A stretch of 63,347 bases of DNA from an uncultured Christensenella sp. (GTDB taxonomy: Bacteria; Bacillota; Clostridia; Christensenellales; UBA1242): contig CAZKOT010000001.1 of assembly GCA_964554475.1 (NCBI GenBank), forward strand, positions 1 to 63,347. The letters run 5' to 3'. Shown here piece by piece: positions 3,707 to 23,000 of the stretch (positions within the stretch are counted from its first letter, which is position 1; every line of letters begins with the position of its first letter). The notes under the pieces were generated by a model. That model saw only the letters and a list, made by a program, of their open reading frames with translations. It ran no database searches and had not been told where the DNA came from. The translations under genes and the position numbers were made by a program.

Positions 3707-4887
3707 CTCCCAATTGTGTTTAATTCGCTACCCTCTTCAAAAGTAACACTAGTTAAACCTGTGCAACCTCTAAAGGCATCGGCATTTATTTGTCTTATGC
3801 TAGACGGAATAAAAACCGAATCAATCATCACATTATCTAAAAATCCTCCAATTGCAACTTGATAAACGGGAAGCGTTTCATGCCCAACTATGCCGTCATC
3901 CCAATAGGGCAATATTTCAATTGCTGTTTCGGTTACCGAAACCCCACTAGCAATATAACCAGGTATGCTACCACCACCAGCATTAGAATCGTAAGTGTAT
4001 GTAATTCCGTCATCATCTATTGAATAAATTTTTGATGAATATTGACCCCAAGATGACGTAAAAGCACTCAATCTTGTGTAGAAAACATTAATTTTTAAAT
4101 TTGCTGAGCCCGAACCTGACCCAAACACTTCTGTTCCAAGATTTGCAGGTGAACTTGCAAAAACTGTTACTTCTAAATCTGCATGTGTGTTTGCAAATGC
4201 CATATATCCAATGTCTGTAACACTATTCGCAATTACTACTGAAGTTAAACTAACACAATTGTGAAATGCTTCATCTCCAATAATTGTTACATTGTTTGGA
4301 ATTTTTATTTCGCTTAAATTCGTACAATTAACAAAAGCACTATTAGGAATTGTTGTAAAATTGACATTCGAAGGTAAAGTGACGCTTGTTAAACCTGAGC
4401 AACCATAAAAAGCAAAAATTCCAATAGATGTCACACTATTTGGAATTGTTAAGTTTGTTAAACCACAACTAGCAAACGCCTCAGTTCCAATACTTATAAC
4501 GCTTTCAGGAATTACTATATCTGTTAAAGCTGAACAATTACTAAAGGATTGAAATCCTATGCTAATTACACTATTTGGAATAACCACACTTATATATGGT
4601 TCATTATCAAAAGCATTATCATCAATTATTCTAACAGGAAGTCCATTAAAAGTTGAGGGAATAACTAAATTTGTCCCTGCAAATGAACCACTTGAAGTAA
4701 CCGAGTAATAATCATCTTCACCATTATCGTGAAAAGTAAATTCGAGTCCACTTACTGGATCAATGTCAGCATATGTTCCCTTATTAAAAGCAACAGTAAG
4801 CCCCCAAATTCCCAAAGAGAGAGAAAGAATGGAAATTATTGTTACAACCAAACTTCTAACCCAAAAATTTACTGCTGTTTTAAACAT
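3646..4887 (-). CDS. BspA-type LRR surface protein, N-terminal segment (signal peptide/TM anchor plus LRRs). It is terminated prematurely by the frameshift.
   Basis: The track ORF is 413 aa. The N-terminal hydrophobic anchor is 'VRSLVVTIISILSLSLGIWGL'. Repeated 'IPNSVTSIGxxAFxxCxxLTSV' LRR units follow. A GAGGG RBS lies upstream of the ATG. The last 20 aa, 'MALQQLSREYFMLALI', are an out-of-frame read. Confidence 0.6.
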   Translation of the reverse strand: MFKTAVNFWVRSLVVTIISILSLSLGIWGLTVAFNKGTYADIDPVSGLEFTFHDNGEDDYYSVTSSGSFAGTNLVIPSTFNGLPVRIIDDNAFDNEPYISVVIPNSVISIGFQSFSNCSALTDIVIPESVISIGTEAFASCGLTNLTIPNSVTSIGIFAFYGCSGLTSVTLPSNVNFTTIPNSAFVNCTNLSEIKIPNNVTIIGDEAFHNCVSLTSVVIANSVTDIGYMAFANTHADLEVTVFASSPANLGTEVFGSGSGSANLKINVFYTRLSAFTSSWGQYSSKIYSIDDDGITYTYDSNAGGGSIPGYIASGVSVTETAIEILPYWDDGIVGHETLPVYQVAIGGFLDNVMIDSVFIPSSIRQINADAFRGCTGLTSVTFEEGSELNTIGSNAFMALQQLSREYFMLALI

Positions 4888-5139: not shown

Positions 5140-5346
5140 TTAATCTTTTTCATTTAACTTTTTAAGTAAAAACTCCAAATCTATTCCATGAACTTGTGCC
5201 GCTTCTTCAAGTGTTTCCATTTGAGTCATGGGACAGCCAAAGCAATGAAGACCAAAACCCATTAAAATTTGTGAGTTTTTTTTATCTTTTTCAATGACTT
5301 CTCCCAAAGTACTTTCTTTTGTAAATTTTTCTTTTATCTTACTCAT
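5140..5346 (-). CDS. DUF1858-like small redox-disulfide domain protein (hybrid-cluster-protein-associated type)
   Basis: 68 aa. It has 'GEVIEK..ILMGFGLHCFGCPMTQMETLEEAAQVHGIDLEFLLKKLN', a CxGC motif with the TLEEAA..HG pattern typical of that family. Confidence 0.5.
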   Translation of the reverse strand: MSKIKEKFTKESTLGEVIEKDKKNSQILMGFGLHCFGCPMTQMETLEEAAQVHGIDLEFLLKKLNEKD

Positions 5347-5390: not shown

Positions 5391-6740
5391 TTAATTTCTT
5401 AATTTACCACTCAAATTCTCACCGCAAATTTCACATTCCTCATTTTCAGTTGAATTTTCAGCCCCGCAAAACTTACATCTTAAAACATTATTAGTATTAA
5501 CGTTATAATACAAATTATCAAGCGATAAGTCAACATATTTTTCGTCATTATTCGTATTAGTAACTTGTTTTTCGTCATTGTAAGGTGGCAAAGCACTGAC
5601 CGAAGAAAGTTTATCATCATTACGAGCTTTGAGTTGCAATTCCTGAGTGTCAAATTGCATATTCAATTTTCTAGGATTAGTTTCAACTGAAGAGGAAACT
5701 GCCGAAGAGCGAGGAACGCTTTCCAATGCCTCATTTTTTTTAGCCATTTTCTTTTTTTCTCTTTCCCACATCTCTTTTAAATAAATCTCATCATCTTCTA
5801 TCTTTTTATTTTGTCGCAAATCATTAGTTTCCACCTCATTTATATTTTGTGATTTGTATTTTGTATTTTGATTTGTAGAATGTAAATTATAATTTGCATT
5901 TTGATTTTTTTTCCCAATCATTTCAAATCCAACCCAAGATGAACTTTCGCTTTTAGCCCCACTTATTTTATTTTTATTTGTTTGTTTACTTTTCTCTTTT
6001 AAAATTTCAATCTCAGTTTTTTCTTCAATTTTTGAAAGGGAGTTTAATTTTTCAGTAATATTTTTAGGCAAATTAACATTTTCAAATGAAAACCCCAAAA
6101 GAACAACTCCAATTTTTTCCAATTTTTTGACCAAAATATTAAATACTTTATCAGTCAAACTAACTTTTTCAACAAGGTCATCAAAATCGTAATCCGACTT
6201 TTCAATTATTGAAATAACCATTTCACTAACAAAACTACAAAGCAATTTTTCCGCTTCATTAATTTTTAAATAATCATAAACTTTAAATAGTTCTTTCAAA
6301 AAACTTTCGGGCTCATTAATTTTGAATGCAAATTTTCCATCTGCTGAAACCTTAAAATAACCAACTCGTGGATCAAAGCACTCAACTTTGCGATATGTTT
6401 TCCATTTCAAATGTTCAAAAGGCGTTAAATTCAAAAAATAGGCATTTGGAGAAAATCTAGTTGGCAATGAGCCATCTTTTCTAATTTTTCCAAGACGAAA
6501 ATATTTAACAGATTTTGGCAAAATAACTGCTTTCAATTCATGTTTTCCAAAAGGAATTGTATCAAGAATTTTTCCTGATTTGGAAAGTACAAAAACAAAA
6601 TTTTCTGGAACGGTAATTTTGTTTCCAAGGTAAACATGACCTTTTTTTAATTTATAAGGAAAAAGGAGAACCGAACTGATGTCAAAATCAAGTTCAATAT
6701 CCTTTGAAAAAAATTTTTTAATTCTACTAAATAATCCCAC
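5391..6740 (-). CDS. SPFH-superfamily protein of the YdjI/COG4260 type, with an N/Q/K-rich low-complexity linker and a C-terminal zinc ribbon
   Basis: 449 aa. The N-terminus 'MGLFSRIKKFF...FPYKLKKGHVYLGNKITVPENFVFVLSKSGKILD' aligns by eye with B. subtilis YdjI. The C-terminal 'CKFCGAENSTENEECEICGENL' is a zinc ribbon, as in YdjI. Confidence 0.5.
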   Translation of the reverse strand: MGLFSRIKKFFSKDIELDFDISSVLLFPYKLKKGHVYLGNKITVPENFVFVLSKSGKILDTIPFGKHELKAVILPKSVKYFRLGKIRKDGSLPTRFSPNAYFLNLTPFEHLKWKTYRKVECFDPRVGYFKVSADGKFAFKINEPESFLKELFKVYDYLKINEAEKLLCSFVSEMVISIIEKSDYDFDDLVEKVSLTDKVFNILVKKLEKIGVVLLGFSFENVNLPKNITEKLNSLSKIEEKTEIEILKEKSKQTNKNKISGAKSESSSWVGFEMIGKKNQNANYNLHSTNQNTKYKSQNINEVETNDLRQNKKIEDDEIYLKEMWEREKKKMAKKNEALESVPRSSAVSSSVETNPRKLNMQFDTQELQLKARNDDKLSSVSALPPYNDEKQVTNTNNDEKYVDLSLDNLYYNVNTNNVLRCKFCGAENSTENEECEICGENLSGKLRN

Positions 6741-7024: not shown

Positions 7025-8050
7025 ATGAACAAAATTTCACAAATTATTTCAAAAGAAGTTATCTCAATTTATGAGTGTGTTTCAGTAGGTTTTGTAAAAG
7101 ATGTTTTTTTTAACAAAAATTTAACAAAAGCAAAAAGTTTTATTATTTTTAACGATGAAAGTGAAATTGAAAATCAGGTTCGAAATTTTAAAATATATTG
7201 TTTAACAGAAGAAGGAATTTTAATTCGTAACACAAGTAAAATTGAAATCTTTACCGCTGAACGCAATAATCCAATCAACAAAAAAGTGGTGTCTTTATCC
7301 GGTAAGGATTTTGGAAAAGTTACCGATGTGATTATAGATGAAAAATGCAGTGTTATTTCAATTATAACAACAATCAAAGAAATAAAGCCCAATATTATTG
7401 TAGCAAATGGATTAAAGCATTTAATTATTAATGACGCTGAAATTGCTTCTTTAGGAGCAAAAAAAATTACTCAAGGACGCTTCCGACCAAGAATAGCTTT
7501 TAAAACAAACAACGAAGATTTGAAAGACATTAAAGTAAAAATTGTTCAATCCAAAGAAGAAAACAATTACAATTCAATAATTGAAAACACAAAAACAGAA
7601 GATAACTTACCACAACAACTTAAACAAATTGAAAATAATGAAAATACAAATTTTGAAAAAATTTTAACCACTCAATTAAAGCAAGAACCGCAATTAATTA
7701 TCCAAGAAGAAGAAAAATTTATTTTGGAACAAACACAAATACACCAAAATGAGAAAAAAGAATTACAAATTGAAAATGAGCAAGCAAAAATCTTTAATCA
7801 TGAAAAACAATCAAAAGAACAAATACCCCATCAAACTCAAATTCCTCAAATAAAAAGAAATAGTGTGCCTATTTTTCCTAGTAAAATATCTTCTGAAAAA
7901 GGAATAATTGGCAAAAAAATAGCACAAACGATTATAGGAATTAACAACGAAGTAATCATACGAAAAAACAACATTATTTCCGCCCATACACTAGAAGTAG
8001 CAAAAAAACATAATAAAATAAATGAATTGTTAACACATGTCAGCGACTAA
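7025..8050 (+). CDS. Hypothetical protein with PRC-barrel-like N-terminal repeats and a Q/E/N-rich central low-complexity region
   Basis: 341 aa. It has two 'IISKEVISIYECVSVGFVKDVFF' / 'VVSLSGKDFGKVTDVIIDEKCSVISI' beta-barrel-like segments resembling YlmC/YmxH PRC barrels. This assignment is weak. Confidence 0.3.
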   Translation: MNKISQIISKEVISIYECVSVGFVKDVFFNKNLTKAKSFIIFNDESEIENQVRNFKIYCLTEEGILIRNTSKIEIFTAERNNPINKKVVSLSGKDFGKVTDVIIDEKCSVISIITTIKEIKPNIIVANGLKHLIINDAEIASLGAKKITQGRFRPRIAFKTNNEDLKDIKVKIVQSKEENNYNSIIENTKTEDNLPQQLKQIENNENTNFEKILTTQLKQEPQLIIQEEEKFILEQTQIHQNEKKELQIENEQAKIFNHEKQSKEQIPHQTQIPQIKRNSVPIFPSKISSEKGIIGKKIAQTIIGINNEVIIRKNNIISAHTLEVAKKHNKINELLTHVSD

Positions 8051-8170: not shown

Positions 8171-8551
8171 TTATTTTACCTGTATCGGTGGTTTTTGCAT
8201 TAACAATTTTTGTTTCCTACTATATTTTTTCAACTCTTCAACATCTTTTTTAAGTTTTTCAATTTCGATTTTTTCTTCTTTTTTCATTTCACTATTTTTT
8301 TCTTCTTCCAACTTTTTTCGAATACGTATTTTTGCCGATTCTTCTTCTTCATGTAATTCCATTTCTTCAGCTTTTGAAATTTCTTTTGCAGATTTTCCAT
8401 GAAAAGCATCAAGCATACCTTGAATTAAACTTCTTTTTCCCTTTCTTCCAAATGATTCTTTATATGTTGCCAAAGGGAAAGTTGAAAAAGAACTAATGGG
8501 TTTTAAAAATTTACCAATTGCCCATCCTAGTTTTTTTAAAAAACCTTTCAT
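8171..8551 (-). CDS. Stand-alone copy of the C-terminal cytoplasmic tail domain of the adjacent VirB6/TcpH-like paralogs
   Basis: 126 aa. 'SSFSTFPLATYKESFGRKGKRSLIQGMLDAFHGKSAKEISKAEE...KKDVEELKKY' aligns with the last 110 aa of the 794-aa protein ('AAFSTFPMGEIKKAFGRSNKMALQSMLWAFQGKSSKEIEKQE...KKLKQDVERLKRE'). Its own RBS, 'aggagag', sits 8 nt before the ATG. It has no TM segment. Confidence 0.45.
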   Translation of the reverse strand: MKGFLKKLGWAIGKFLKPISSFSTFPLATYKESFGRKGKRSLIQGMLDAFHGKSAKEISKAEEMELHEEEESAKIRIRKKLEEEKNSEMKKEEKIEIEKLKKDVEELKKYSRKQKLLMQKPPIQVK

Positions 8552-8596
8552 TTTGCTACTCTCCTATATAAGCAACTGAAGAAAAAGCTATATTAA

Positions 8597-10981
8597 TTAT
8601 GGTGTTCCACCAGGTGGCTTAGGTTTTTTAGAAATTTCTCTCTTAAGTCTTTCAACATCTTGTTTAAGTTTTTTAACGTCCTCATTACCTCCGCCTCCGC
8701 CAGTTGTAACATCCTTACCTGATTTTGCAATTTTTTCATGAATTCTTGCTTTTGCTGCTTCTTCATCTTCATATTTCTTAATTGTTTCTTGTTTTTCAAT
8801 TTCTTTTGAAGATTTACCCTGGAATGCCCACAACATACTTTGTAGAGCCATTTTATTAGAACGTCCAAAAGCTTTTTTAATTTCACCCATAGGAAAGGTC
8901 GAAAATGCTGCCAAGTTTGAAAGAGGTAAAACATCAGCTGTCCATGAAGCGACCTTACTTGCACGAGTTCCCATAATTTCAGAAGATTTTTGACTTTTTA
9001 TTTCTCTAAAGGCTTTTTCTCCATAACCGCCTTTTTTATCTTTAAACTCATCAAAAGTTTGCCCGATATATTGTTTTGCATACAAACCTTCCATCATTGA
9101 GCCTTCACTTGATTCTTTCCAATCTTTGTAACTCTTATCTCCACCTTCATCTTGATAATCTTTGTAAGCCTCAGACATATTTTTAGTAAATTCTTCATTA
9201 CTTCCCGTTAAAGAATCAAAAGCTTGACGTGCTCCGCCACCTTGCCATTGTGATTCAGCCTCTTTTACCATGCCTTCATGTTTACCAAAAGATTTAACCT
9301 TTGTTCCAAAATCTTGGAGTTTTGCTCCAGCGCCCATTACACCACCAACAAATTTATGATCTCCCGGATGTTGTAGCTCTTCTTTTTTAGCTTTTTGCCA
9401 TTTAGACCCAATTACTTTTCCTGCAGTACGCCCAACTATCGTTGCCGGCAAAGCAGTTGCTTTAACCGCAAAACCTGCAGCAGCACCTGTGTATTTTGCA
9501 GCAGATGCCAATGTGTCACCAGTTTTTTCAACAAGTTCACCTCCAGCTGCAACTGCATCTTCACCACCAATAAGTCCGCTTAACAATTTAACAAACCCTT
9601 CAACAACAGTTAAGCCAACAATTATAAATAGTGTTGAAATAATCAAATTAATAACATAAATTGCACTACTCCAAGTTCCCGTTTCAGCAAAAAATTTAAT
9701 ATCATTTAGGTAAGGAAAAATTAGGAAAAACAAATTCATTCCAATAATTGCACCATAAGCACTCAATGCTTTTGAAAGAAAATTTTCCCGCCACTTATTA
9801 AATGCCTTTCCGCCGTCAAGAGGCATAACTGCAATAATAGGGGGTGAAATAATAAACAAAGCAACAATTTCAATAATACGTTTAACTAATGCCGCAGCAA
9901 TTTTAACAAAAATTGTAAGAGCAATAATAAAACAAGCAAATCCAATTAAGAAATTAAATTGCCACAAATCATAATAATACCAAATAAGTGCAACATCATA
10001 TTTTGAAAATCTTGTAACCGTTGATGGTGATGGAAAAACCATTCCACATTTAAGTGCATCCACACCATCACCAAATTGAAGTGTTTCAATGGTTGGTTTT
10101 AAATGAATGTTATTTGCAAACGCTTCATCAACCAATTGAGCGCATGCTTGAGCATCTGCCCCAGTGTCAAAAATCTGAAAATTTGAAATCCTATCTCTTT
10201 GTGATAATTGAAAAAAGCTCAAGTTTTCAGTGCTTAAATCTTCTTTAATAACCCAATAAGTATTATTTTGTCTAAATCTATTTGCATTATATGCCGCAGT
10301 TTTAAACATTAACCCACTGAATGAAGTTGTTGTTGTTGCAGGAGAATAAAAATAAAAAATATCATAATAAACATAAGACATTTGACCGTTACCCGCCTCA
10401 CCTTGAACAAGAAGGTTTTTAACATTTTGCATTTCTCCACCTGAATCCATATATTCAGTTTTAAACAATGTTCCGCCAGTTTCGCCGCCTGTTGTGGCAC
10501 TATCAAGAGCCATTAGCAAAATATCACTTAAAAATAATCCAAATATACAAGAAACAGGAACAATTAAAAATAAAAACAAACTTTTAATGCTTTTTGAAAT
10601 AATAATCAATTTGTTGTTTGAAGGTTTTTCTTTTGCACTATCTGCATCGGGCATATACTCTTGTCTAATAGTAGCAATAATAGTTGTAACAATTAAAAGA
10701 ATAACAGCAAAAATCACAAGCGCCCAAAATGCGTTTTTAATAGCAGGATAAGCAGAATCTGAAACAAAAATATTTCTAAGAAAAGAAAGTGCAATGTCTC
10801 CTGTTTGTGCTGTAGCATCTTCGCCAACATAATAGGTATCCAAACCAGCAAGTTTTCGCATTACAAGTTGTAAAGTATCGAGTAGCGACATTAAAGTAAC
10901 GCAAAGAAAATAAATAAGTTTAGGAATTAATGAAATTATTTCCCAAAACCAATCAAAGGGTGTCCAAGCCAAAAATTGCAT
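8597..10981 (-). CDS. Polytopic membrane protein, paralog A: candidate VirB6/TrbL-like (TcpH/ConG/Orf15 class) T4SS channel component
   Basis: 794 aa. Multiple predicted TM helices are present, for example 'AFWALVIFAVILLIVTTIIATI', 'LFLFLIVPVSCIFGLFLSDILL' and 'ALFIISPPIIAVMPLDGGKAF...IIGMNLFFLIFPYLN'. A Gly/Ala-rich segment is followed by a long K/E-rich tail. The size class matches Gram-positive VirB6-like proteins. It sits next to the VirD4-like gene. No direct motif proof is available. Confidence 0.4.
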   Translation of the reverse strand: MQFLAWTPFDWFWEIISLIPKLIYFLCVTLMSLLDTLQLVMRKLAGLDTYYVGEDATAQTGDIALSFLRNIFVSDSAYPAIKNAFWALVIFAVILLIVTTIIATIRQEYMPDADSAKEKPSNNKLIIISKSIKSLFLFLIVPVSCIFGLFLSDILLMALDSATTGGETGGTLFKTEYMDSGGEMQNVKNLLVQGEAGNGQMSYVYYDIFYFYSPATTTTSFSGLMFKTAAYNANRFRQNNTYWVIKEDLSTENLSFFQLSQRDRISNFQIFDTGADAQACAQLVDEAFANNIHLKPTIETLQFGDGVDALKCGMVFPSPSTVTRFSKYDVALIWYYYDLWQFNFLIGFACFIIALTIFVKIAAALVKRIIEIVALFIISPPIIAVMPLDGGKAFNKWRENFLSKALSAYGAIIGMNLFFLIFPYLNDIKFFAETGTWSSAIYVINLIISTLFIIVGLTVVEGFVKLLSGLIGGEDAVAAGGELVEKTGDTLASAAKYTGAAAGFAVKATALPATIVGRTAGKVIGSKWQKAKKEELQHPGDHKFVGGVMGAGAKLQDFGTKVKSFGKHEGMVKEAESQWQGGGARQAFDSLTGSNEEFTKNMSEAYKDYQDEGGDKSYKDWKESSEGSMMEGLYAKQYIGQTFDEFKDKKGGYGEKAFREIKSQKSSEIMGTRASKVASWTADVLPLSNLAAFSTFPMGEIKKAFGRSNKMALQSMLWAFQGKSSKEIEKQETIKKYEDEEAAKARIHEKIAKSGKDVTTGGGGGNEDVKKLKQDVERLKREISKKPKPPGGTP

Positions 10982-11117
10982 CTTTTTTCCTCCCTGCCTA
11001 TTACATTTCGATTATTGCAGTTACATCATTGCGAGAAAACATATTCCATGGCATTCACTTCATTCTCGTTATTTTATAAAAACGAAATGGGTAGCGTTGT
11101 TAAACAAAATGAAAATA

Positions 11118-13388
11118 TTATTTCTTTTTTGTTTGTGATTGTTCTGCTTTTGCTTTTTTTTGAACTTCGTAAGCAGCCTCTTCTTTTTTCTTAAGTCTCT
11201 TTTCTTCCATAAATCCAGCAATATCACCAAGTCCTTTGCCCATAAATGCCATTTGAGCAGCAGTAAATCCACCTTTTCCACCTTTAGTTGCAGCAGATTT
11301 CCATTCATCTTGTAGAAGGTCAGTAAGAAGTCCAATATGTTTTATGCCTGTTGCTCCAATTGCACTTGAAACTCTCGCTTTTCTTTGAGTTCCAATTTCT
11401 TGAAGTCTTTGTGCTTTTCCTTGTTTGACGTATGCATCTCTTTTTTCTTTTAGTGCTACATCTCTTGTTCTGCCTCCGGCGGAATACCTTTTTTCGGCTG
11501 TATCAAGTATTTGTTGTTCAATTTTAGCCTTTGCAGTTTGACCTTTTTCTGAACTTTCCCAATCTTCTCGGGTTAATGCAGCGGCACCTGAAGCTTTTGT
11601 AGTCATAGAATATCTTCCGTAAGCACTATCCATAGCATCTTCTTGATTTTTTTGTTCTTCCTTATATTCCTGACTTTGTCTTATTTCTTCGTTAAATTCT
11701 TCATTTGCTTTTTGTTTTTCTTCTCTATCAAATTTCTGTCCGTGTTCTTGTTCAATTTTTTCTTTTGTTTTCTTACTCGTTAAAAATTTTCCAGCAAATC
11801 CTCCCTCATCACGTATTTTGTTTGCTAAACCGGATTTTCCAATCTTTTTTCCAATTGCTCTTGCCCCTTTACCAGCGAGACCTCCTCCCATTGCTTTCAT
11901 TGCAAGACCTGCTGCTCCACCCGTTAATCGTGCAGCACCTGCAACCAATGAACCCACTTTTTCAGTTAGCTTTCCACCCGCTTCGGCGGCATCTTCTGCA
12001 CCAATCATTTTGCTAACCATTGCTAAAAAGGTGTTTATGACAGTCAATCCAACAATAATCATTAACGAACTTATCATAAGATTTAATAGGGCAGTAACAA
12101 TTGCAATGTCTCCGGTTTCAGGAAACAGTTTAATTTGATTTAAATACGGAAAAATCAAAAACAATAGATTCATTCCAATAATACATGCAAAAACCGAGAG
12201 TGCTTTTTGAAGAAAACTTTCACGCCATTTATTAAAAGACTTACCCTCATCAAGAGGCATTGTGGCAATAAAGGGTGGTGAAATAATAAAGAGAGCAACC
12301 ATCTCAATAATACGTTTCATTAAACCAAGAATAATATCAATAAATAATTTAATTGCAATGATTAAAAAAGCAAAACCAACAATATAATTAAAAAACCACA
12401 AATCATAATAGTACCAAACAAGTGGAACATTAAATTTTGAAAAATTCGAAATCTGTTGTTCATCTGTAATTGTCCATAATCCTAATTCTACAACTGAAGA
12501 AAAAGAACTGTCAACATTGATAGGTTTTGAACCTGGTGTTTGCCCCGTTCCTTTAAAAAAGACATGATTTGCAAAAGCTTCATCAATTAATTCAGCGGTT
12601 TTTTCTTTATCATCAGCATATAAATTAAATATATCAAAATGTGAAATTGTTGAAACTGTTCCCACTAAACGTTGAGAATATGTAACTCCACCATATTCTT
12701 TATTGATACGAACCCTGTTTGCATTATAAGCGGCAGATTTAAACATCATTCCGCTAAATGTTAAATTCCTCGTAGGCAATCCTTGTTCAAAAATATCAAA
12801 AAAACAATATGTTTGAGTATCAGCAATATTTTCACTATGCAGTTGACTTCTAGCAGTTGAATTAGACAAAAGTATCCCCCCAGTGGAAGTACTTGTCGTT
12901 GCACTGTCCATTGCTTGAAGAGCAATGTCTCCTAATGCAAGACCAAAAATACAAGAAAGAGGAACAATTAAAAACATAAAAAGACTACGAATGCTACTTT
13001 TGATTATTGTTAACTTATTATTTGATGGTTTTTCTTTTGAAGATTCTTGACCAGGCAAATATTCCTGTCTAATGATTGCAATAATTGTTGCAACAATTAA
13101 AAAAATTATGCCTAAAATAACCAATGCCCAAAATGCATTTTTTAAAGCGGGAAAACGTGAATCTGTAACAAAAATTTCTCTCATAAAACCAAGCGCAATA
13201 TCGCCTGTTTCAGGACTAGTACTATCACCTATATAATAGACATCAAGACCGGCAAGTTTACGCATAATCCATTGAAAAGCATCAAGAACACTCATTAATG
13301 AAACGCAAATAAAATAAATCAATTTGGGAATAATGTTAACCCAAGATGTAATCAAATCTTCAAAACTTAAAATAAATGATACTGACAA
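11118..13388 (-). CDS. Polytopic membrane protein, paralog B: tandem duplicate of paralog A and candidate VirB6/TrbL-like protein
   Basis: 756 aa. The N-terminal 170 aa and the membrane core are collinear with paralog A. Shared blocks include 'IPKLIYF(L/I)CV(T/S)LMS(L/V)LD', 'KEKPSNNKL', 'WYYYDLW(Q/F)FN', 'RIIE(I/M)VALFIISPP', 'MPLD(G/E)GK(A/S)FNKWRE' and 'IIGMNL(F/L)FLIFPYLN'. The central 250 aa are strongly diverged. Confidence 0.4.
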   Translation of the reverse strand: MSVSFILSFEDLITSWVNIIPKLIYFICVSLMSVLDAFQWIMRKLAGLDVYYIGDSTSPETGDIALGFMREIFVTDSRFPALKNAFWALVILGIIFLIVATIIAIIRQEYLPGQESSKEKPSNNKLTIIKSSIRSLFMFLIVPLSCIFGLALGDIALQAMDSATTSTSTGGILLSNSTARSQLHSENIADTQTYCFFDIFEQGLPTRNLTFSGMMFKSAAYNANRVRINKEYGGVTYSQRLVGTVSTISHFDIFNLYADDKEKTAELIDEAFANHVFFKGTGQTPGSKPINVDSSFSSVVELGLWTITDEQQISNFSKFNVPLVWYYYDLWFFNYIVGFAFLIIAIKLFIDIILGLMKRIIEMVALFIISPPFIATMPLDEGKSFNKWRESFLQKALSVFACIIGMNLLFLIFPYLNQIKLFPETGDIAIVTALLNLMISSLMIIVGLTVINTFLAMVSKMIGAEDAAEAGGKLTEKVGSLVAGAARLTGGAAGLAMKAMGGGLAGKGARAIGKKIGKSGLANKIRDEGGFAGKFLTSKKTKEKIEQEHGQKFDREEKQKANEEFNEEIRQSQEYKEEQKNQEDAMDSAYGRYSMTTKASGAAALTREDWESSEKGQTAKAKIEQQILDTAEKRYSAGGRTRDVALKEKRDAYVKQGKAQRLQEIGTQRKARVSSAIGATGIKHIGLLTDLLQDEWKSAATKGGKGGFTAAQMAFMGKGLGDIAGFMEEKRLKKKEEAAYEVQKKAKAEQSQTKKK

Positions 13389-13570
13389 TTAATTATTCCT
13401 TTATATTATTTTGACATTTTCATTCTTATTATAACAAAAAAAATGAAAAAGCGAAAAGATTTTTAATAAAATCTCTGCTTTAGTTTAAACTTAATACAAA
13501 AAATTAATAATAAAAAAATAATATTGCTTCAATAAATAGTTACAAAATAAAATAAAATTATGATTGTCTT

Positions 13571-15544
13571 TTAAAAATCGAAATCGGTGAAATCACTCCT
13601 TGTTCCCCCGCCCAATTTTTTATTTCTTTCAGTTATATCAAAATATATTGCCTTTTCGTCAAGATATTTGCTAGGAACATATTTTTCTGCCGCTTTACGT
13701 TGATCAAATTGTGGAGTTTTGAAGTAGGGTGTAAGTTGGGTTTTAATAGGGTTAACTTGAAATATTTTAATTATTGCTGTTCCAAAAGGAAGTTGACCTA
13801 ATTCATAAGGATAAATAAGTGGTCGCGAAACAACTTTTTTACTTGTTGTTTTATTTTCACCATCACCTTTTTCAGATTTACTAGAAGATTTATCCTCCAT
13901 TTCCATTGAAATTTCGCCACACATTTTTGAGTATTCTTCTTTTGTTTTTTGGTCCTCGGTTCCCAAATAAATTTGGATATTACAGTTTCCTCTTATTGTT
14001 TCAGCAACTTCTTTAGAATATTTGTTTTCAAGCTGAGAATAAGATTGAATAACAAGTTCAAAAAAAATATCACGAGAACGTGCAACTGTAATAATACTAT
14101 CCATCTTTGGAATTTTGGGTAAATTTGCGAACTCATCAAGTAAGAAGTACACTGTTTTGTCAAGTTTAAGTGATGGTTTAAGACTAGCTTTTTCAATTAA
14201 TTTTTTATATATTTGTGAAATACACATTGTTGCAATACAGTGTCTGCTCTCTTTTTCATCGGGTACTTTAATAAAAAGAACGGTCGGTTTGTCTGTGAAA
14301 TCGTCAAAATACATATCATTACCGCTTGTTGCGTAACAAATGCCGGCATCTTGAAAAATTGAAATTCTTGATTGTAGCACACCAATGTAACTTTTTGTTG
14401 TATTTGGAGCATTGTTAATAACCGTTGAAGTTAATGATTGCACCTTTGAAAGTTTGTCTCTTCCAATATTACAATATTGACGTAGTGTCCCAAAAATATT
14501 ATCAGGATCTGGGTCACGATAATTTGCAATTTTTCCAAGATTATAAAAATTAAATCTTTCTCTTGTCATTCCTAGTTCAGGATTTGAACTATCTTCAAGC
14601 ATTGCAAGCATAAGTCCAAAAAGAAAATCTTGTGCTCCACGCTCCCATGAAGTATCAGTTTTGCTTTCAATTGGAACAACAGTTGCAGCAATTTCACGAA
14701 GTTCGTTTTCTGCCATATCAATAAGTTCTTGTTTTTTTGACAAAGCATCTGTAACTGCCATTTCTTTTGTTGGATATGCAATTTTATTATATTCATACCA
14801 AACAGGTCCATAATTATTTGTTATTAATCTCAATCCACTATTAGGATTCGGTTTTCCTTCTCTATGTTCTTTTATCTCTCTTTCTAGATTGTGTGCTTTG
14901 TGGTACATCATATATGAGTTATCCATTGGATTCCAGCGTGTAGAAGCATATGGGTTACGAAGGTCAAGCACTTCAAGACGATATCCCGCTTCTTCAAGTT
15001 GAATTGAATGATTGTTAAAAAGTTCCCCTTTCGGGTCAGTAATCACCAAACAAGGTTTTTGTGCGGTGTGTGAAAGAATTCGTATTGCCGGTTCAATCAA
15101 AAGCGTTGTTTTACCCGAACCAGTTGTTCCAATAACAAGGGTGTGAATTGGATTATACATATTTATTAATAATTTTCCACCACTTACAAGATTACGTATA
15201 ACAATACCACTTCGTTTTATGGAAGAAAGTGCACCCCAATGAGTCGGTGTAAATTTAGAATCAGTTGCAAGTTCATTTAAAGTAATCCAACGAGAGTCAT
15301 AATATTGACTCATGGTTCCACTTTGTTTTGTTTTACCTTGTCCAAAATCTCCGCCTTTTTTAGGTGTTTTTGTTAATACATATATAATTGCTCCAACTGC
15401 AGCAAGACCAAAAGCTCCTAAAGTTGTGCTGTTTGTTAAAAGAAAAGGAATGTCGTCAAAACCATTTAATAAGCCCGAAACAACAACACCTGCAACATAT
15501 GAGAGAATAATTAAAACTACTAAATAAATAATTTTTTTCTTCAT
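13571..15544 (-). CDS. Type IV secretion coupling protein (VirD4/TraG/TraD family ATPase)
   Basis: 657 aa. Features in order: an N-terminal TM helix pair, Walker A 'VIGTTGSGKTT', Walker B 'VYFLLDEFANLPKIP', and the T4CP-typical 'QSYSQLENKY...IRGNCNIQIYLG' block. The C-terminus ends in the acidic/aromatic 'DFTDFDF'. Confidence 0.8.
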   Translation of the reverse strand: MKKKIIYLVVLIILSYVAGVVVSGLLNGFDDIPFLLTNSTTLGAFGLAAVGAIIYVLTKTPKKGGDFGQGKTKQSGTMSQYYDSRWITLNELATDSKFTPTHWGALSSIKRSGIVIRNLVSGGKLLINMYNPIHTLVIGTTGSGKTTLLIEPAIRILSHTAQKPCLVITDPKGELFNNHSIQLEEAGYRLEVLDLRNPYASTRWNPMDNSYMMYHKAHNLEREIKEHREGKPNPNSGLRLITNNYGPVWYEYNKIAYPTKEMAVTDALSKKQELIDMAENELREIAATVVPIESKTDTSWERGAQDFLFGLMLAMLEDSSNPELGMTRERFNFYNLGKIANYRDPDPDNIFGTLRQYCNIGRDKLSKVQSLTSTVINNAPNTTKSYIGVLQSRISIFQDAGICYATSGNDMYFDDFTDKPTVLFIKVPDEKESRHCIATMCISQIYKKLIEKASLKPSLKLDKTVYFLLDEFANLPKIPKMDSIITVARSRDIFFELVIQSYSQLENKYSKEVAETIRGNCNIQIYLGTEDQKTKEEYSKMCGEISMEMEDKSSSKSEKGDGENKTTSKKVVSRPLIYPYELGQLPFGTAIIKIFQVNPIKTQLTPYFKTPQFDQRKAAEKYVPSKYLDEKAIYFDITERNKKLGGGTRSDFTDFDF

Positions 15545-15981
15545 GCCAAAACCCCTTGAAAAATTTAATAAAATTTTATAATAACCAATTTTTTAAATTA
15601 TAAATTATGAATTTCATTAATAGGTTACACAAAAAGAAGATTTTAAGTCAAGTAAATGGAATGAAAGTAGAAAAATATATTGCGAATTTTCTTTTTCACA
15701 AATAAAAATAAAAAAGATATTTTTAAAATATCAAATTGTTTCACAACAAAAAATAAGTTTCATAATGAGGTTTCATATTAATTAATAAAAATTTAAGAAT
15801 ATAATTAAACTAATAGTTTAAAAAAAATTTAAAATTAAATTTAAATTAACAAAAAAAAATCAAAATTTGTTTTGAAGTTTTTTTTTATTATGTTAATATT
15901 ATTTTGTAAATTTAATTGCTTTTGAATAAATGCAATTTTATTGCGAAAAATACGAATAGAAAAATTGTTTTGGAGGAATAT

Positions 15982-16359
15982 ATGAATTATTTAGTAGCAG
16001 TAGCAAGCAAAATATTGGGTTTTGTTGCTTCCCCATTTCAAGTCGGTGGTTGGGAAAATATAGAAGATAGAATACCCGAGGATTTTGCTTGGATAAAAAA
16101 TGTTGTTGATGCCATCACCATGATACTTTGGCCACTTTTAATTGTTGTCGGTGCTGCGGGAATGATTTATGCTGTTATTCTTGGAGTTAACATGGCGAGA
16201 GCTGATTCAACTGAAAAAAGAGAAGAGGCGAAAAAACGTTTAATTAATGTTATTGTAGGAATGGCAATTGTAATTGGATTAATATTATTCATGCAATTAT
16301 TCATGTACGTCATAATGCCGAATTTCATACCAACAGTTGATTTAATACCAGCAGAATAA
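15982..16359 (+). CDS. Small two-TM membrane protein, possibly a VirB2/TrbC-like pilin or an accessory T4SS protein
   Basis: The track ORF starts at a TTG at 15916. An in-frame ATG at 15982 lies 5 nt after GGAGG. The product is 125 aa. A hydrophobic leader is followed by two TM helices, 'ITMILWPLLIVVGAAGMIYAVILGV' and 'VIVGMAIVIGLILFMQLFMYVIM', separated by a charged loop 'ARADSTEKREEAKKRL'. The gene is divergent from the T4CP operon across a 370-bp AT-rich spacer. Confidence 0.3.
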   Translation: MNYLVAVASKILGFVASPFQVGGWENIEDRIPEDFAWIKNVVDAITMILWPLLIVVGAAGMIYAVILGVNMARADSTEKREEAKKRLINVIVGMAIVIGLILFMQLFMYVIMPNFIPTVDLIPAE

Positions 16360-16371
16360 AAATAATAATAA

Positions 16372-16404
16372 AAACCTCTTTAACATTAAAGAGGTTTTTT
16401 TATT
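16372..16404. terminator. Rho-independent terminator, bidirectional between convergent genes
   Basis: 'aaacctcttta' / acat / 'taaagaggttt' is followed by T7. It starts 13 nt after the 16359 stop. Confidence 0.55.
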
Positions 16405-17055: not shown

Positions 17056-20000
17056 ATGAAAAACCATCACAAGAAAACCTTGCTTTCGGTTATGTTTTCA
17101 CTCCTCCTTGCAATTACAGGTGGCTTTTTCTTAAATTTTCAAAAATTTCCATTAATTGCAAATGCTGATGATTTATTTACTCCCTCCTATCTTTCGATTT
17201 TTAAATATACCGAAAGTTCAACTCCTGGGGAATACACCAAAACAGGAAATACAATTTCACGTTTGGACGGAGTTTATTTAAATGAAGATCAAATTGTTAT
17301 TTTAAGACTTGCACACCCAGATGAAGCAGTTTCTTACGGAAACTATAAAATAGAAGTTTATGGAACAGAAATATTTTTAAATAAATCAGCAATCACATGG
17401 AGACCTGAATACACTGTAAATAATTATAACGAAACCCAATATGATTACATAGAAATGCGTTTTAATGTTTGGGCATCACCCTATGGAACAGAGGAACCCG
17501 ATGACGAAGGGAGATATGACATAAGTATTCAATATGTTGAATATTTTAACGGAGTAGCACTTCCATCAAAAACCTTAACTTATTCTTTTTATCTTTTCAA
17601 AACATCAAGTTATTATTTGGGAACCTATCCTGCTGTAACAATTTTAAATTTAGCAAGTTCATCTGACACAATTTTAGCAGGAGCATCTGCTTCTTATGCA
17701 AGAACTTTTCAGTATTATTACAAAAATAATGCACCATCAGAAACACGTCTTTCGCTCCCAGAACTATCATATAATCCCCAAAAATTTGAAATTAGAATTA
17801 CCAAAACAATTTACGGAATTAACACTGTAAGCTATATTAGTTTAAATTCATCTGGCGAAATTGTTCAAACCAATCCAATTGTAAAAATCCGTAAGACTGG
17901 CGAAACAAATGCTATTATTAATTTTAATGACATAGGAAATTACCAAATTGATTATATATTTGTTCACAAATATTTAGACAATGATGTGATTGTAACAGAG
18001 CCACTTACTAACGTAACAAATCAAACAAAATATGACCGAATGAATTTGTTTGGCTTTCAATTATTTCACACTGATATCAATTCTTCTGAAGCACAAAATC
18101 GTTTAGAATTTAAATCATTTGATTCTAACAACATTTTAAGAACTGGCTTTCAAACCGACGTAACTTACACTCATATTTCAGACAATTCTACAAATGCAAG
18201 ATATATTTCTTTTGCTGAAGAAGGACTAAACTCCTATTCAATTGTTCAAACAGATGGAATGAGTGAAACATTTCCATTGTCAACAATCAATTTTAACAAT
18301 GAAATTTTAACTCTTCCCAGCACAAATCAAGCACCAGTCGAACTTGAGTTTAATGGATCAATTTTAACTGATAATTCTTCCTTAATTAATGACAGTTATT
18401 ATTTAAAGCTTGACCACTATGACTCGACAGCAGGTAATACAAGAAATATTTGGAAAATGGAAAGAAATTATCGTGGAACAGCATTTACAGAACCCGGAAC
18501 ATATTTAGTAAAAGTCAGATATCAATCTCAAATATGTATGCAACCCGAGCGTTTTTTTACTCAATGGTTTTTCTTTAAAATTGTCAGTGAAACTCCAAAT
18601 TACACAGTAACAACTCAAAGCGGAACAAATTTACTTTCAAACGCATTCACAAAAGAGTCAGTTATCGTTAACGCCATAGAAAGTGAATATAACAATCCTT
18701 TTAATTCACCAACTCAACTATTTGTTTATTCAAAATCTTTTGAAAGCTCAACTTATTCAAATGAAACTTTAATAAATCCCCAAAGTCCTACCTCTTTTTC
18801 ATCAAAAGCAAATTATAAAGCAGTAATTAAATTCGGAAAAAACTTTTCTAAAAGTAAGAGTAGTTATTTTACCATCGACACAGATGAAATTTCTGGAATT
18901 ACAACAAGAACTGTTTCTTTTATTGATGGCAACTATCAAAAAAACTCGGCAATAAATTTTTTCTCGAATTCAGATGTTGCTGTCGAATGGAATGAAAAAG
19001 CAGCAAGTGGAAATATCACAACAGCTCAATATAAATTTATCCCTATCACAAAAACTACTTCAACTTTTTCTCATGCCCAACTCTTAAATTATTATGAAAA
19101 CCTAAGTCATTATATCCCAGTTAACTATGAAATCACTTACAATGGTGGATTAATACAAGCAGCTCCATACTCAAACACAGTAGGATCCTTAACCGTTCCA
19201 ACCGAAAAAGTAAAATCACAAGAAGGAATATATTTATTTAAAATTTCAGATTTGGCTGGTAATGTTGCCTACCATTCTTTTGTTATTGAGAAATCAGCTC
19301 CACGAGTTCTTCAAAAAACCTTGGGAGAATATCAAACAGATTTTTCAACATTAAATCTAGTAAGCGAAAATACAACTATTCAATGGGGTGAATATAAAGT
19401 AATTAAATTTAGCGGTTTAGATTTAACCGGAATTGATTTAAATGATTGGACAATCCCCGATGGACCTGACCCAGGAACTGAACGTGATGACCCAAATATT
19501 GACCCTTGGTTACTCTTACTTTTTAGAAACAAAGCAACAACTTTAGAGATGTCAAATTCGAATGCCGATTTTAAAAGAATTTTAATTGGCAGTGAAACAA
19601 ATCTTTTCTTATCTTCAAAAATAAAAACCAGCGAAGTAATGGTTCAAATTGGTGAAAAAAGAGTAATTGCGCAAACCGAAAACATTTATGCAGGTGGAGA
19701 ACCCTTGCCCGTTGAACAAATCGGTGGAATTAATTACTGTTTTGGTTATCAAATAAATATTGCAAATTTGGCCGGCACTATTATTTACGAAAACACCTAT
19801 TCATTTTTTGTAAATGATGAGAGTCAAACGAGAACGGGAGAATTCGCAACAACTCATAATATTGAGGTTTCAACAGACATTTCCAAAACTTCTGTTCGTT
19901 TTGCAACAAACGTTCCCTCAAATCCTTATGATGGTTTAAGTCGACATGATTACGAATTAACAGATTTAAGCAATCCAAATAATAGCACAAAATCGCTTTT

Positions 20001-23000
20001 TTACATGCCAATAAGCATAGATTTACTAGAATTACAGTACAAAGTTTCACCAGATCCCGGTTCAATTGAACTTGATGAAATAATCATTTATTTCTATCAA
20101 TATGTTTCAAATTATTTGATTTATACGGGACCGACAGGAATTTTGCAAAATAACATGTATTACACTCTTGATGAGGAAATTGAATATGAAACAGGACAAT
20201 TTGCTACTCTTCAATATTGTTTAACACAAAATATTTTTAGTTATTCAAATTTTCAGGTAGGAACAAGTTTTGTTCTTTCAAAAACTCCAATTGAAATAAT
20301 TGTTTACAGTTTCGAAGAAAACATTAATCTAGGAAATATTGACGGAGACTTATATGTTTGGGATATTAACACAGTTTACGACACCACAAGTGGAAAAACT
20401 TTAACAAACGAAGGAAAATATGAAATTTTCAGAACCTATCGTAATCTTGAAGGTGTTTCAACACTAGTTGCCGGTAACTATGATTTTATGACTAGAAAAA
20501 TTACATTTTATGTTGACAGACAAGATATAATTTCTTCACCAATTGTATTGTACATTGAACCCGATCCAAATCAGCCCATTCAACAAGAAAATTACATTCA
20601 AATAAGCCGTGTTGGTGGACATGGTTATTTGGAAGTATTATATATTTCACCTTCAGGTTCAGGTTTAGAAGAAAATAAATTTAAAGAATTATTTAGAGCA
20701 AAAAATTTAAATCCTGCATCTAAATTAAATATTTTTGAAACAAACAAACTTCCGGTAAAAATTAGTATGCCCTTATTGAAATTTGGTGATTTAATTGGCT
20801 CAAATTTCACTGCGTTCGCAAATTCACTTTTTTATGATTCAGTGCCAAATTCTTATATTAAAACGTTTGAAATTACAATTTCATTAAAGCATTTGCCCAC
20901 AGGAACAATAACAGCACAAACCTACACAATTGAAGCATCAAATCTACCACACATTCCGGGCAGTGGAAAAAGTAGCATTCAATTTGCACCTAATCTTTAC
21001 TTAATCACAACCGGAATAACAAACGGTTATATTGATTTTCCAACTTTTCACACCAGTGGGCAATACGAAATAACGCTTTCTCAAAACAATTCGCTTTTTA
21101 AAGGAAATCATTTAAATTTGATTTTTTATTTAGAAATTAAAAATCAAGCACCCGTTTTTTCTGTTGAAGATTCAAATGGCAATCCCCTTCAACCAAATAT
21201 TGACGAAACACTTTACTACACAAATGATGAACAAATCAAAGTAATATGGACTGATTCAACAAGTCCGTATATGGCAAAAATTAATTTAAATAAAATTCAA
21301 TACTTTGTTGGCACGGGTAGTTTACAAACTGTTAATCCTGTTGATATTACAACAGAAGGCTACAATCACTATTTTTCTTTAAATATTTCAGGACTTACAA
21401 GTGGTGCAAGAGTTACAATTCTTGTTGAATATGAAGGACAAGAATATTATTACTCGCCAGGTTTTTTTAGAAGCAGTAAAGTTGTTGAAATTGACAGAAT
21501 AGCACCAACAGCAAGTATTGAAAAGCTAATAACCAAGGTAAATGCAAGTTCAATTATTAATTCTGCGAACTTACGGCAAGGCCATCAACAGCAAGTAAAA
21601 TACAATAGAACAACAAAAGACCCCACAAGCATATTTAAAAACTTTGCATTTGCAGTTGATGTTCGCGATTTTAATACATTGATTTATTCTAATTTAGAAA
21701 GCGAACTATATTATAAAAATGTTCCAAACAAATACAGTGACATTTCATATAGCGAACTTGACCCTGCCCTTTCACCTCTTTCAACAATTCGTTATAGTGG
21801 AGATTATACAAGAATCTTAGACATCCAAGAAATTTACGACCTTGTTTCTTCTTCTGCATTTATTCCCTCTTATTATGAAATTGTCGAAGTTGATTTTGCA
21901 GGAAATATTACAGTATATTCAATTTATTTAACAGATTTATCAAAATTTGCAATTAATGAAGACTTAAACAATAATGGCATTTTGGATTCCAATGAAGACA
22001 TCAACGAAAACGGATTTTTGGATGTTAACAATCAAGATTTACTTTCATACGTAAGTGATATTAGTGGTGATTTAAAATTAAAACAAGATGAAATTGTAAG
22101 AAAAAATTATAATAGCACAATTTTTTCAAAAGGAAAATTTGAATTAATACGTATAAATGCTTTTGACTATCCATGGTCAATAATTAGTTATAACAATATT
22201 AGTTATTTAAATTCACCAAATCTTGAAGATGGCCAAGTTTACAAATGGGCAACCACAATAACAACGACAACACTTTCAAACGAAATAAATTTGGGAGTGT
22301 CAAGATATAATTATCCTATAATGATAAAAAACGTTCCCTATTTAAACATAAATATTCAAGTTGTAGTTTCAAACGCAATTCTTGATATTTCAGAACCCAG
22401 TGGAATCGCAACCTCTTTAACAGTTACAAAAACTCTCGCAAATGACACCCAATACATTAATTGGACATCAATAACAATTTGGGAATACATCGGTGGGAAT
22501 GTAACAAGAACAGCCGAGTTAAAAAATGGTGTTTCTGAACAAGGTGTTACAATTAATAATATATTAAGTTACAATGTTGTTGGCAACGTAACAACTTTCC
22601 AAATTGCAAATGTAAATGCAAGTGCAGGACCACATTATCGTTTTAGAATTTTTGATAATTTTTCTCAAACTTATACTTTTCATCATCTTTATGGACAAGA
22701 ATTTGTGGAAACAATTTCAAACGAAGACGGTTTGGCAACAATGAAAACAGACTTTTTCTACGAAAATGAGGGCGACGAACCCCAATTATTATACATAAGC
22801 AACAAACCTTTTATTTTCCGTTTTTACAAATCAATAACAACAGTAAAACTAACCGTTATGGCATTCAATTCTGTTTTAGGTTATGGATGGAGTGCAACAA
22901 ATATATACAACATATCAAAAGATTTGATTCCTAACCTCTCATGTTTTGGAATAATTAATAATAGCAATCCTTCATTTATTGAACTAAACTTAAGACCAAA

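Follow-up and report, generated by a model that had tools for sequence, protein, structure and literature searches.

In the chromosome of an uncultured Christensenella species, a small group of genes is best read as a domesticated, minimal machine of the cell envelope derived from a type IV secretion system (T4SS), closest in logic to the archaeal Ced system and to the T4SSs of Patescibacteria. The genes lie in a 63,347-nucleotide stretch of contig CAZKOT010000001.1, which was analysed as a whole and is called the window below. Their conserved parts are a VirD4-type coupling ATPase, a VirB2-like pilin candidate, one or more VirB6-like proteins with a free copy of their tail, and a giant anchored surface protein. 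On balance, we lean towards the view that the locus is a vertically inherited, chromosomal, pared-down descendant of a monoderm T4SS or conjugation apparatus, and neither a mobile element nor the wreck of one. The module would thus be a domesticated, minimal T4SS derivative in Bacillota.

The original prediction, made from the letters of positions 8171-16404, had described a coupling ATPase, two membrane proteins, an orphan tail gene and, across a spacer, a mini-protein, and all of these elements are present. The minus strand carries virD4 (13571-15544, 657 aa), the genes of two extended VirB6-like polytopic membrane proteins, paralog A (11118-13388, 756 aa, TTG start) and paralog B (8597-10981, 794 aa), and the gene of a stand-alone "tail" mini-protein (8171-8551, 126 aa) that has no transmembrane (TM) helix. 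A divergent AT-rich spacer (15545-15981; 437 bp on the open reading frame (ORF) map) separates virD4 from the gene of the VirB2-like pilin candidate (15982-16359, plus strand, 125 aa from ATG, two TM helices). The extent of the unit had been set too narrowly: the gene of a 2680-aa giant surface protein (17056-25098, plus strand) also belongs to the conserved module. The divergent junction of virD4 and the pilin-like gene recurs across most related loci, and the spacer is presumably the promoter region for both arms; its promoter-like matches were generic only, no more than expected from shuffled sequence. Just 3' of the pilin-like gene, a hairpin with a perfect 13-bp stem and A and T runs on its sides (16370-16399) resembles a bidirectional terminator.

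The VirD4-type protein is unambiguously a type IV coupling protein (T4CP). It has two N-terminal hydrophobic helices that would form the TM anchor, a Walker A motif (GTTGSGKT at residue 139), a Walker B motif (YFLLDE at 466), and matches to the Pfam families T4SS-DNA_transf (E 5e-50), TraG-D_C (8e-35) and TrwB_AAD_bind (3.5e-29), together with the all-alpha domains of T4CPs. It also scored 290 bits against the NCBIfam model conju_CD1115 (cut-off 250). A bona fide VirD4/TraG coupling ATPase had been predicted, and these matches bear this out. Orthologs with 58-77% identity occur in more than 100 metagenomic clusters, while the closest protein among 72,556 searched plasmids is 28% identical. Between related species, the ratio of nonsynonymous to synonymous substitution rates (dN/dS) is 0.03-0.06, which makes virD4 the best-conserved part of the module. 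This and the following dN/dS values are rough, as dS was mostly 1-2.4 in the pairs compared and hence near saturation.

The two tandem paralogs, announced as polytopic proteins of about 750-800 aa, are 41% identical over their full length (E 1e-175). Each has a Gly/Ala-rich segment besides its six hydrophobic helices, and its charged tail measures ~250-280 aa. In paralog B, a TM core (residues 1-~500) with an inserted alpha/beta domain (~165-340) is followed by a disordered charged C-terminal tail. Both proteins matched, above cut-off, two NCBIfam families of mycoplasma integrative and conjugative element (ICE) TM proteins (NF045848 and NF045889): the conjugal transfer protein MMCAP2_0566_fam (117.6 bits for A and 124 for B, cut-off 90) and the ICE transmembrane protein ICE_Mbov_0396_TM (74.2 and 85 bits, cut-off 70). 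No Pfam family, TrbL included, was matched at E <= 0.01, and a search of PDB sequences with the profile of the VirB6-like alignment returned matches to the low-complexity tail only. Comparison by hhalign with TrbL of the plasmid pBMB64, the sole Gram-positive TrbL/VirB6 protein compared by profile, gave a probability of 0.4%. Thus, neither a profile nor a member of the VirB6/TrbL family was matched by sequence.

An AlphaFold2 (AF2) model of residues 1-530 of paralog B, built with 69 homologs, reached a predicted local distance difference test score (pLDDT) of 82 and a predicted template modelling score (pTM) of 0.78; it places long membrane helices on either side of the inserted alpha/beta domain. 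Foldseek, a check proposed with the original prediction, matched this model to VirB6-type structures with weak E-values (0.1-0.4): chains of TrwI accounted for most of the top probabilities, up to 0.98, and DotA was the best structural match. The paralogs therefore combine the polytopic architecture of the VirB6/TrbL family (4-6 or more TM helices) with a TrwI/DotA-like predicted fold. They also fit the definition of an "extended VirB6" (PMC12857230): besides the six helices they have a hydrophilic domain in the centre and a tail that is charged and rich in Gly and Ala. Profile matches and models together make the designation VirB6-like well supported, although not proven. The part of the original proposal that named TcpH, ConG and Tn916 Orf15 as relatives fared less well: kinship with these proteins was not demonstrated, and the profile comparison with the one Gram-positive TrbL was null.

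The VirB6-like family is large. A word-indexed protein search with paralog B returned 181 homologs, and exhaustive phmmer with its N-terminal 530 residues found at least 2001 clusters (50% identity) at E <= 1e-3, all of them from metagenomes or metagenome-assembled genomes (MAGs). The dN/dS of the VirB6-like genes is 0.08-0.20. In two of the related loci (numbered here with the prefix L), from two species, three VirB6-like paralogs stand in tandem (L074, 9965-17724, and L078, 5157-11831). Ahead of these arrays lies an unannotated protein of 663-773 aa with no significant Pfam family, and neither VirD4 nor the pilin was found within either locus.

Over 109 aa, the product of the tail ORF shares 41% identity with residues 687-790 of paralog B (E 2e-18), in agreement with its description as an orphan copy of the C-terminal tail of the paralogs. 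A hidden Markov model (HMM) of such tail ORFs hit 24 loci, with both context classes represented, each time in a small ORF; in 20 cases this ORF comes immediately 3' of the last VirB6-like gene. Since such ORFs are found across related loci, the tail ORF is a conserved gene and not debris; its dN/dS is 0.16.

The mini-protein at 15982-16359, foreseen as a protein with two TM helices, is supported as a VirB2/pilin-like candidate by its profile matches and layout. It scored 29.0 bits against Pfam T4SS_pilin (PF18895), above the gathering cut-off of 26.6, and 39.1 bits against the NCBIfam ICE_MMCAP2_0565/Mbov_0395 pilin-like model, just below the cut-off of 40. Of its 323 homologs, nearly all of the 120 listed carry PF18895. 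A leader-like N-terminus is followed by two TM helices with a short charged loop, MARADSTEKREEAKKR (residues 71-86), between them, which is the arrangement of VirB2-like T4SS pilins. Across 62 sequences, 12 of the 16 loop positions are invariant and the other four are at least 90% conserved, whereas the N-terminal leader and the C-terminus vary freely. In a small membrane protein, conservation this strict is unusual and hints at a conserved binding partner of the loop. The AF2 model shows a leader helix and a helical hairpin (pLDDT 82), for which Foldseek found only non-specific helical hairpins in the PDB (E > 1). The dN/dS of the pilin-like gene is 0.05-0.25.

The 2680-aa giant begins with a Sec signal peptide (…LIANA/DD), continues with a beta-rich body rich in S, T, N and Y, and ends with a TM anchor followed by RRRMKIR. 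Neither Pfam nor NCBIfam offered a family for it. In at least 15 related loci an ortholog of 2300-2600 aa (26-41% identity) stands beside the pilin or VirD4 gene; its place in L088 and L090 is filled by a 750-aa protein with the same topology. The dN/dS of the giant is 0.11. As it is a Sec substrate with a stop-transfer anchor, the giant is probably a partner of the machine and not its cargo, and we think it is better read as a co-functioning surface component. A second giant, a 3559-aa protein with a lipoprotein signal and no known domain, is encoded further downstream (27630-38309, minus strand). Towards its C-terminus it is similar to the GLUG/beta-helix region of the 750-aa proteins of L088 and L090.

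A scan of GTDB species representatives yielded 78 loci, all of them in uncultured gut Clostridia. Many labels are generic; the informative ones are Christensenellales, Catabacter sp., Christensenella sp., Candidatus Caccovivens and Candidatus Caccopulliclostridium. The carriers of the module are MAGs, in addition to metagenome contigs. When the window proteins were mapped onto these loci and single homologs were looked up, the gene set appeared in at least seven orders, with one to three VirB6-like genes per module. In the arrangement of the window, shared by L001-L005, L009 and L012, the pilin gene and the giant face away from virD4, which is followed by two VirB6-like genes and the tail gene. 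Six loci (L008, L014, L015, L019, L020 and L093) have virD4 and the giant on one side of the divergent junction and the pilin, one VirB6-like gene and the tail gene on the other. In L056, the pilin gene, opposite virD4, is followed by the giant and a VirB6-like gene, and the latter two are also found in this order in L053 and L064. The pilin and a VirB6-like gene diverge from virD4 and the giant in L089, and in L076 virD4 faces the pilin gene followed by two VirB6-like genes. No VirB6-like gene lies nearby in L091, where virD4 and the giant diverge from the pilin gene, nor in L088 and L090, where the 750-aa anchored surface protein, the pilin and VirD4 are encoded in a row. Around 60 further loci carry a single VirB6-like gene (800-950 aa) on its own, in many cases accompanied by a tail mini-ORF. 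The parts are spread out in some lineages, with pilin and virD4 at one locus and the VirB6-like and tail genes at another.

Two variable features of these loci should be mentioned. The gap between virD4 and the first VirB6-like gene, 182 bp in the window, extends to 460-730 bp in L009 (7073-7806) and L012 (7351-7814); it contains no conserved ORF in these two loci and could be a regulatory region or a small RNA. Additionally, a family of soluble proteins of 180-255 aa without a Pfam match (cluster c32) adjoins the module in L001-L005 and L010 (e.g. L002, 14548-15240) and lies between the VirB6-like gene and virD4 in L066 (14438-14986) and L080 (10114-10680). No homolog of it was found in the window.

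The module is flanked by housekeeping genes in species after species. These include the S10 ribosomal operon, rpmG-secE-nusG-rplK-rplA, ksgA/tatD and engB, ogg and obg, uvrC upstream with rplK-rplA downstream, and hflX with the gene of a class I (GlnS/GltX-type) aminoacyl-tRNA synthetase. No plasmid among the 72,556 gave a tblastn match to the VirB6-like N-terminal domain. Around the module in the window no att-like direct repeats were found, the only repeats being those of the paralogs, and scans of the window for tRNAs and Rfam families returned no match. The comparison with sister genomes thus points to a locus that is conserved as chromosomal, and the low dN/dS values support a retained system, vertically inherited and under purifying selection. 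Of the two fates originally considered for the module, it is retention and repurposing that agrees with its conservation across species.

VirB4, the ATPase expected to be encoded with a canonical T4SS, was sought in the window and within 10 kb of more than 90 related loci, that is, in about 20 kb per locus. No VirB4, DUF87 or AAA_10 match was obtained in either. Pfam scans of the window, which took in most ORFs of at least 100 aa, revealed no VirB4, relaxase or integrase. Four proteins of the CD1115-type plasmid pBMB64 (VirB4, PrgI/VirB3, TrbL and the MobP3 relaxase) served as phmmer queries; they found nothing among all stop-to-stop ORFs of at least 40 aa in the window, and among ORFs of that size in the related loci they found one relaxase only, in L066. 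The Firmicute VirB4 query gave nothing at E <= 1 in the window or the loci. The absence of VirB4, relaxase and integrase genes nearby, as it had been predicted, thus holds for the window, and in the case of VirB4 also for the 10 kb around related loci. Equally, no mark of an ICE or mobilisable element (an integrase or recombinase, a relaxase or oriT, att repeats) was seen in the window.

A motif-based survey gave the same picture. In 86 loci, ORFs of at least 350 aa with a Walker A motif belonged either to families of the module or to other, nearly all housekeeping, proteins, and none was VirB4-like. The former comprise VirD4 and chance motif matches in giant and VirB6-like proteins; the latter, eight of whose nine clusters were checked against Pfam, comprise UvrA, UvrB, FeoB, a penicillin-binding protein, a RecF/ABC-like protein, a glucanotransferase, an oxidoreductase and one serine recombinase. 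VirB4 is also missing from the precomputed Pfam tables of L001-L008 and L088-L093, and no VirB3-like small gene is conserved in the gaps between virD4 and the VirB6-like genes. A conserved divergent neighbour of solo VirB6-like genes (cluster c1, ~610 aa) was considered as a cryptic VirD4 or VirB4 and rejected, as it is UvrC.

The relaxase of L066 lies outside the module and is the only one seen in any gene order. There, at 17669-21732, two tyrosine integrases and a MobL-family relaxase are encoded directly beside the chromosomal virD4. No pore genes accompany them in the sequence at hand, which ends at the relaxase gene. In L080, the equivalent site (13394-15077) holds a RimK-like gene in the same virD4 context, so the L066 element looks like a separate insertion. 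For the same reason we rejected the idea that the VirD4 of L066 (40% identical) is part of an ICE. Possibly it is an integrative mobilisable element that relies on the machine already present in its host.

How such a machine might work can be outlined by analogy with R388 and Dot/Icm. The VirB6-like proteins would oligomerise, in the manner of the TrwI and DotA pentamers, into a channel or platform in the membrane, and the pilin-like hairpin would be fed from the membrane onto it and build a short fibre or conduit across the wall. Below the platform a VirD4 hexamer would dock, possibly on the long charged VirB6 tails, select the substrate and power its passage across the single membrane. The free tail protein could act as a competitor or regulator of this docking, and the giant could make or stabilise contact with the target cell, like adhesins in Gram-positive conjugation. 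Because the architecture parallels that of the archaeal Ced system, we favour DNA as the substrate. It is a guess to which we commit ourselves on that analogy, with either intraspecies exchange or service to relaxase-bearing integrated elements without a pore of their own (such as that of L066) in mind. Protein delivery is the main alternative, and a role limited to a pilus or adhesion is another. In its boldest form, the proposal is that of a first VirB4-less T4SS-derived machine, a VirD4-powered VirB6/VirB2 translocon with a giant adhesin, which a large clade of spore-forming Clostridia of the gut has fixed in the chromosome as a core system for contact-dependent DNA exchange or protein delivery. 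We put this forward tentatively and think it rather less probable than otherwise.

Several points weigh against a minimal machine of this kind. VirB4 has been described as the signature subunit of every T4SS known so far (PMC12857230). Of the 38 species-level loci that extend 5 kb or more in each direction, 31 have a solitary VirB6-like gene, so the function of this gene may be independent of VirD4. The fold search with the pilin candidate gave non-specific hairpins only, and the name "pilin" of PF18895 is itself a prediction. Finally, as some lineages keep the parts at separate loci, a gene for VirB4, VirB3, VirB8 or a relaxase may lie elsewhere, and we regard a distant virB4 as a substantial chance, if well short of even. 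Carried further, this objection becomes a rival account, a complete but dispersed chromosomal T4SS whose VirB4 (with VirB3, VirB8 and perhaps a hydrolase and a relaxase) is encoded elsewhere in the genome, as in Rickettsia rvh or Patescibacteria. It gains weight from the relatives in which pilin and virD4 have no VirB6-like gene within 10 kb or VirB6-like genes are solitary, from the universality ascribed to VirB4 (PMC12857230), and from Patescibacteria, where just 148 of 5,713 T4CP homologs lie near virB4. However, in more than 90 loci with at least seven gene orders virB4 never occurs beside any of the four conserved families, and the gaps lack a conserved VirB3-like gene. We take this account seriously but consider it doubtful.

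A machine without any transport function is unlikely in our view. According to this explanation, a pilin fibre and a giant adhesin on a VirB6-like platform would form a surface organelle or adhesion module, and VirD4 would have been exapted for assembly or regulation; a comparable case is the Trw system of Bartonella, which has kept pilus production and lost translocation. The pilin and VirD4 are indeed always accompanied by a giant or 750-aa anchored surface protein, BspA-type and lipoprotein giant adhesins crowd the window, pilus-only T4SS derivatives have been described (PMC12857230), and exaptation of T4CPs has been raised in a preprint on Patescibacteria. But known pilus biogenesis needs VirB4, with VirB11, and not VirD4 (PMC12857230), and here VirD4 is the best-conserved protein, with intact Walker motifs that point to an active motor. 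The remnant of a decayed ICE that lost VirB4, relaxase and integrase, one of the possibilities raised at the outset, is very improbable. By sequence, the pilin and the VirB6-like proteins are related to proteins of mycoplasma ICEs, and the VirD4 family is annotated on conjugative plasmids, yet all the genes are intact with dN/dS of 0.03-0.2, dozens of species share conserved housekeeping synteny, the window contains neither att repeats nor an integrase, and plasmids gave no homolog of the VirB6-like protein. This combination essentially excludes decay. We give the least credence of all to a dedicated export system for the adjacent giants, the function originally suggested. The linkage of a 2300-2700-aa protein to pilin and VirD4 is tight and conserved, but the Sec signal and C-terminal anchor of the 2680-aa protein and the lipoprotein signal of the 3559-aa protein mark both as Sec substrates that need no T4CP, and the 3559-aa gene is not conserved with the module in related loci. 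The domesticated, pared-down T4SS derivative is the reading we retain.

We found no paper on DUF8208 or on the VirB6-like family or system. VirB2 homologs have not been found in Gram-positive T4SSs except in Patescibacteria (PMC12857230); despite this reported absence, a pilin family with an invariant loop is conserved here across many gut Clostridia. Tools for T4SS detection and classification are built on VirB4 as the universal subunit and would therefore miss a VirD4-VirB6-VirB2 set without a linked VirB4. If VirB4 is truly absent, the assumption of its universality would be overturned and the module would define the smallest known bacterial T4SS derivative. If virB4 lies elsewhere, this would still be the second domesticated relaxase-less T4SS of monoderms after that of Patescibacteria, and in Bacillota. 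In either case, the module is a candidate route of gene flow or cell-cell interaction in abundant uncultured gut lineages, and its VirB6 tails and their free copies provide a natural experiment on the role of such tails.

The window has a G+C content of ~30%, and the standard bacterial code reads cleanly throughout. On the other side of the tail gene lies a trio recognised by Pfam, a DUF1858 gene (5140-5346, minus strand), an SPFH/Band_7 gene (5391-6740, minus strand) and a PRC-barrel protein gene (7025-8050, plus strand), which adjoins the VirB6-like gene in many related loci. Very large surface proteins take up a large share of the window: besides the two giants there are BspA-type leucine-rich repeat (LRR) proteins and a 1240-aa protein (56616-60338, plus strand) with an M6-metalloprotease-like domain, PKD/Ig-like repeats and a C-terminal TM helix. 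One of the BspA-type LRR genes (1-4887, minus strand) extends past the left end of the window. It has a frameshift near 3646-3700, where a T run that lacks one base (AATGCATTTATGGC) breaks the expected repeat reading ...GSNAF-YGITAIE...; an error of sequencing or assembly, a pseudogene and phase variation by strand slippage are all conceivable. After the 2680-aa giant, a 372-aa protein (26128-27246, minus strand) is weakly similar to the N-terminal and RNA-binding domains of Rho, with the ATPase part apparently missing, and its position is kept in the distant relative L089 (19748-20872). The core genes encode TIM, PGK, Dus, a MurJ-like flippase, GroEL, ArgRS, L9, a SpoU methylase, a sigma factor and a SipL-like protein, and a small Fic/DOC-family protein (52340-52750, minus strand) is encoded among them. 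TIM and PGK come after the 3559-aa lipoprotein, in line with the flanks of giant surface proteins and glycolysis genes noted earlier.

Among known systems, the plasmid T4SSs of Firmicutes of the CD1115 type, represented by pBMB64 of B. thuringiensis, have a VirD4 of the same NCBIfam subfamily, and their order of VirD4, small membrane protein and VirB6/TrbL resembles the pilin and VirB6-like genes described here. In contrast, the pBMB64 operon includes the MobP3 relaxase, PrgI/VirB3 and VirB4, its VirD4 is 28% identical to that of the window, and its 285-aa TrbL is unrelated by profile to the VirB6-like paralogs. Tandem paralogy of VirB6 is also known from the rvh system of Rickettsia. The extended VirB6 proteins, namely DotA of Dot/Icm, TcpH and ConG of the MPF_FA class and RvhB6, share with the paralogs at least five hydrophobic helices, central and C-proximal hydrophilic domains, and a length of 700-900 aa with unstructured regions (PMC12857230). 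The paralogs differ in having no sequence match to Pfam TrbL or to the Gram-positive TrbL, and extended VirB6 proteins work with VirB4.

Closest in sequence are the mycoplasma ICEs (MICEs), as Mbov_0396/MMCAP2_0566 are the only curated sequence families that the VirB6-like paralogs match. The conjugation genes of MICEs include CDS5, a VirD4, and the pilin-like family Mbov_0395/MMCAP2_0565. The consecutive locus tags (MMCAP2_0565/0566 and Mbov_0395/0396) suggest that in MICEs, too, the pilin-like gene is the neighbour of the TM gene. The MICE apparatus is likewise minimal, without VirB1 or VirB8 (PMC12857230). However, MICEs are mobile and have a VirB4 (CDS17) and a DDE recombinase, whereas the module is chromosomal, fixed and without a linked VirB4. 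Their TM proteins are also shorter: ~300 aa, where the VirB6-like proteins, with their inserted domain and long tail, have 750-800 aa.

The archaeal DNA-import system Ced (and Ted) is likewise a simplified chromosomal derivative of a T4SS, with a VirB2-like two-helix protein and a single class of motor ATPase. Ced has two VirB6 paralogs, CedA and CedE, lacks a relaxase and exchanges chromosomal DNA. Its motor, however, is VirB4-like (CedB, CedD) and that of the module is VirD4. The function is suggested by analogy of architecture only. The CedB profile matched at nothing but the P-loop (E 7e-4, 18 bits, cut-off 700), beyond which no sequence relationship was detected, and a Ced system in the strict sense was not recognised. 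MICEs, Ced and the T4SSs of Patescibacteria all have a VirB4-class ATPase, which the module does not encode locally. The chromosomal T4SS of Patescibacteria, or the candidate phyla radiation (CPR), is similar in being domesticated, mostly relaxase-less, monoderm and under selection, with PF18895 pilins, VirB6 and a T4CP that is often unlinked. It is centred on VirB4, TrsD and VirB3, in contrast to the module, for which none of these was found in the searched loci, and it belongs to a phylum of epibionts, whereas the host here is a clostridium of an endospore-forming lineage (SipL, GerA, YpeB). Compared with the CPR T4SS, the giant anchored surface protein and the tail mini-gene are specific to the module described here.

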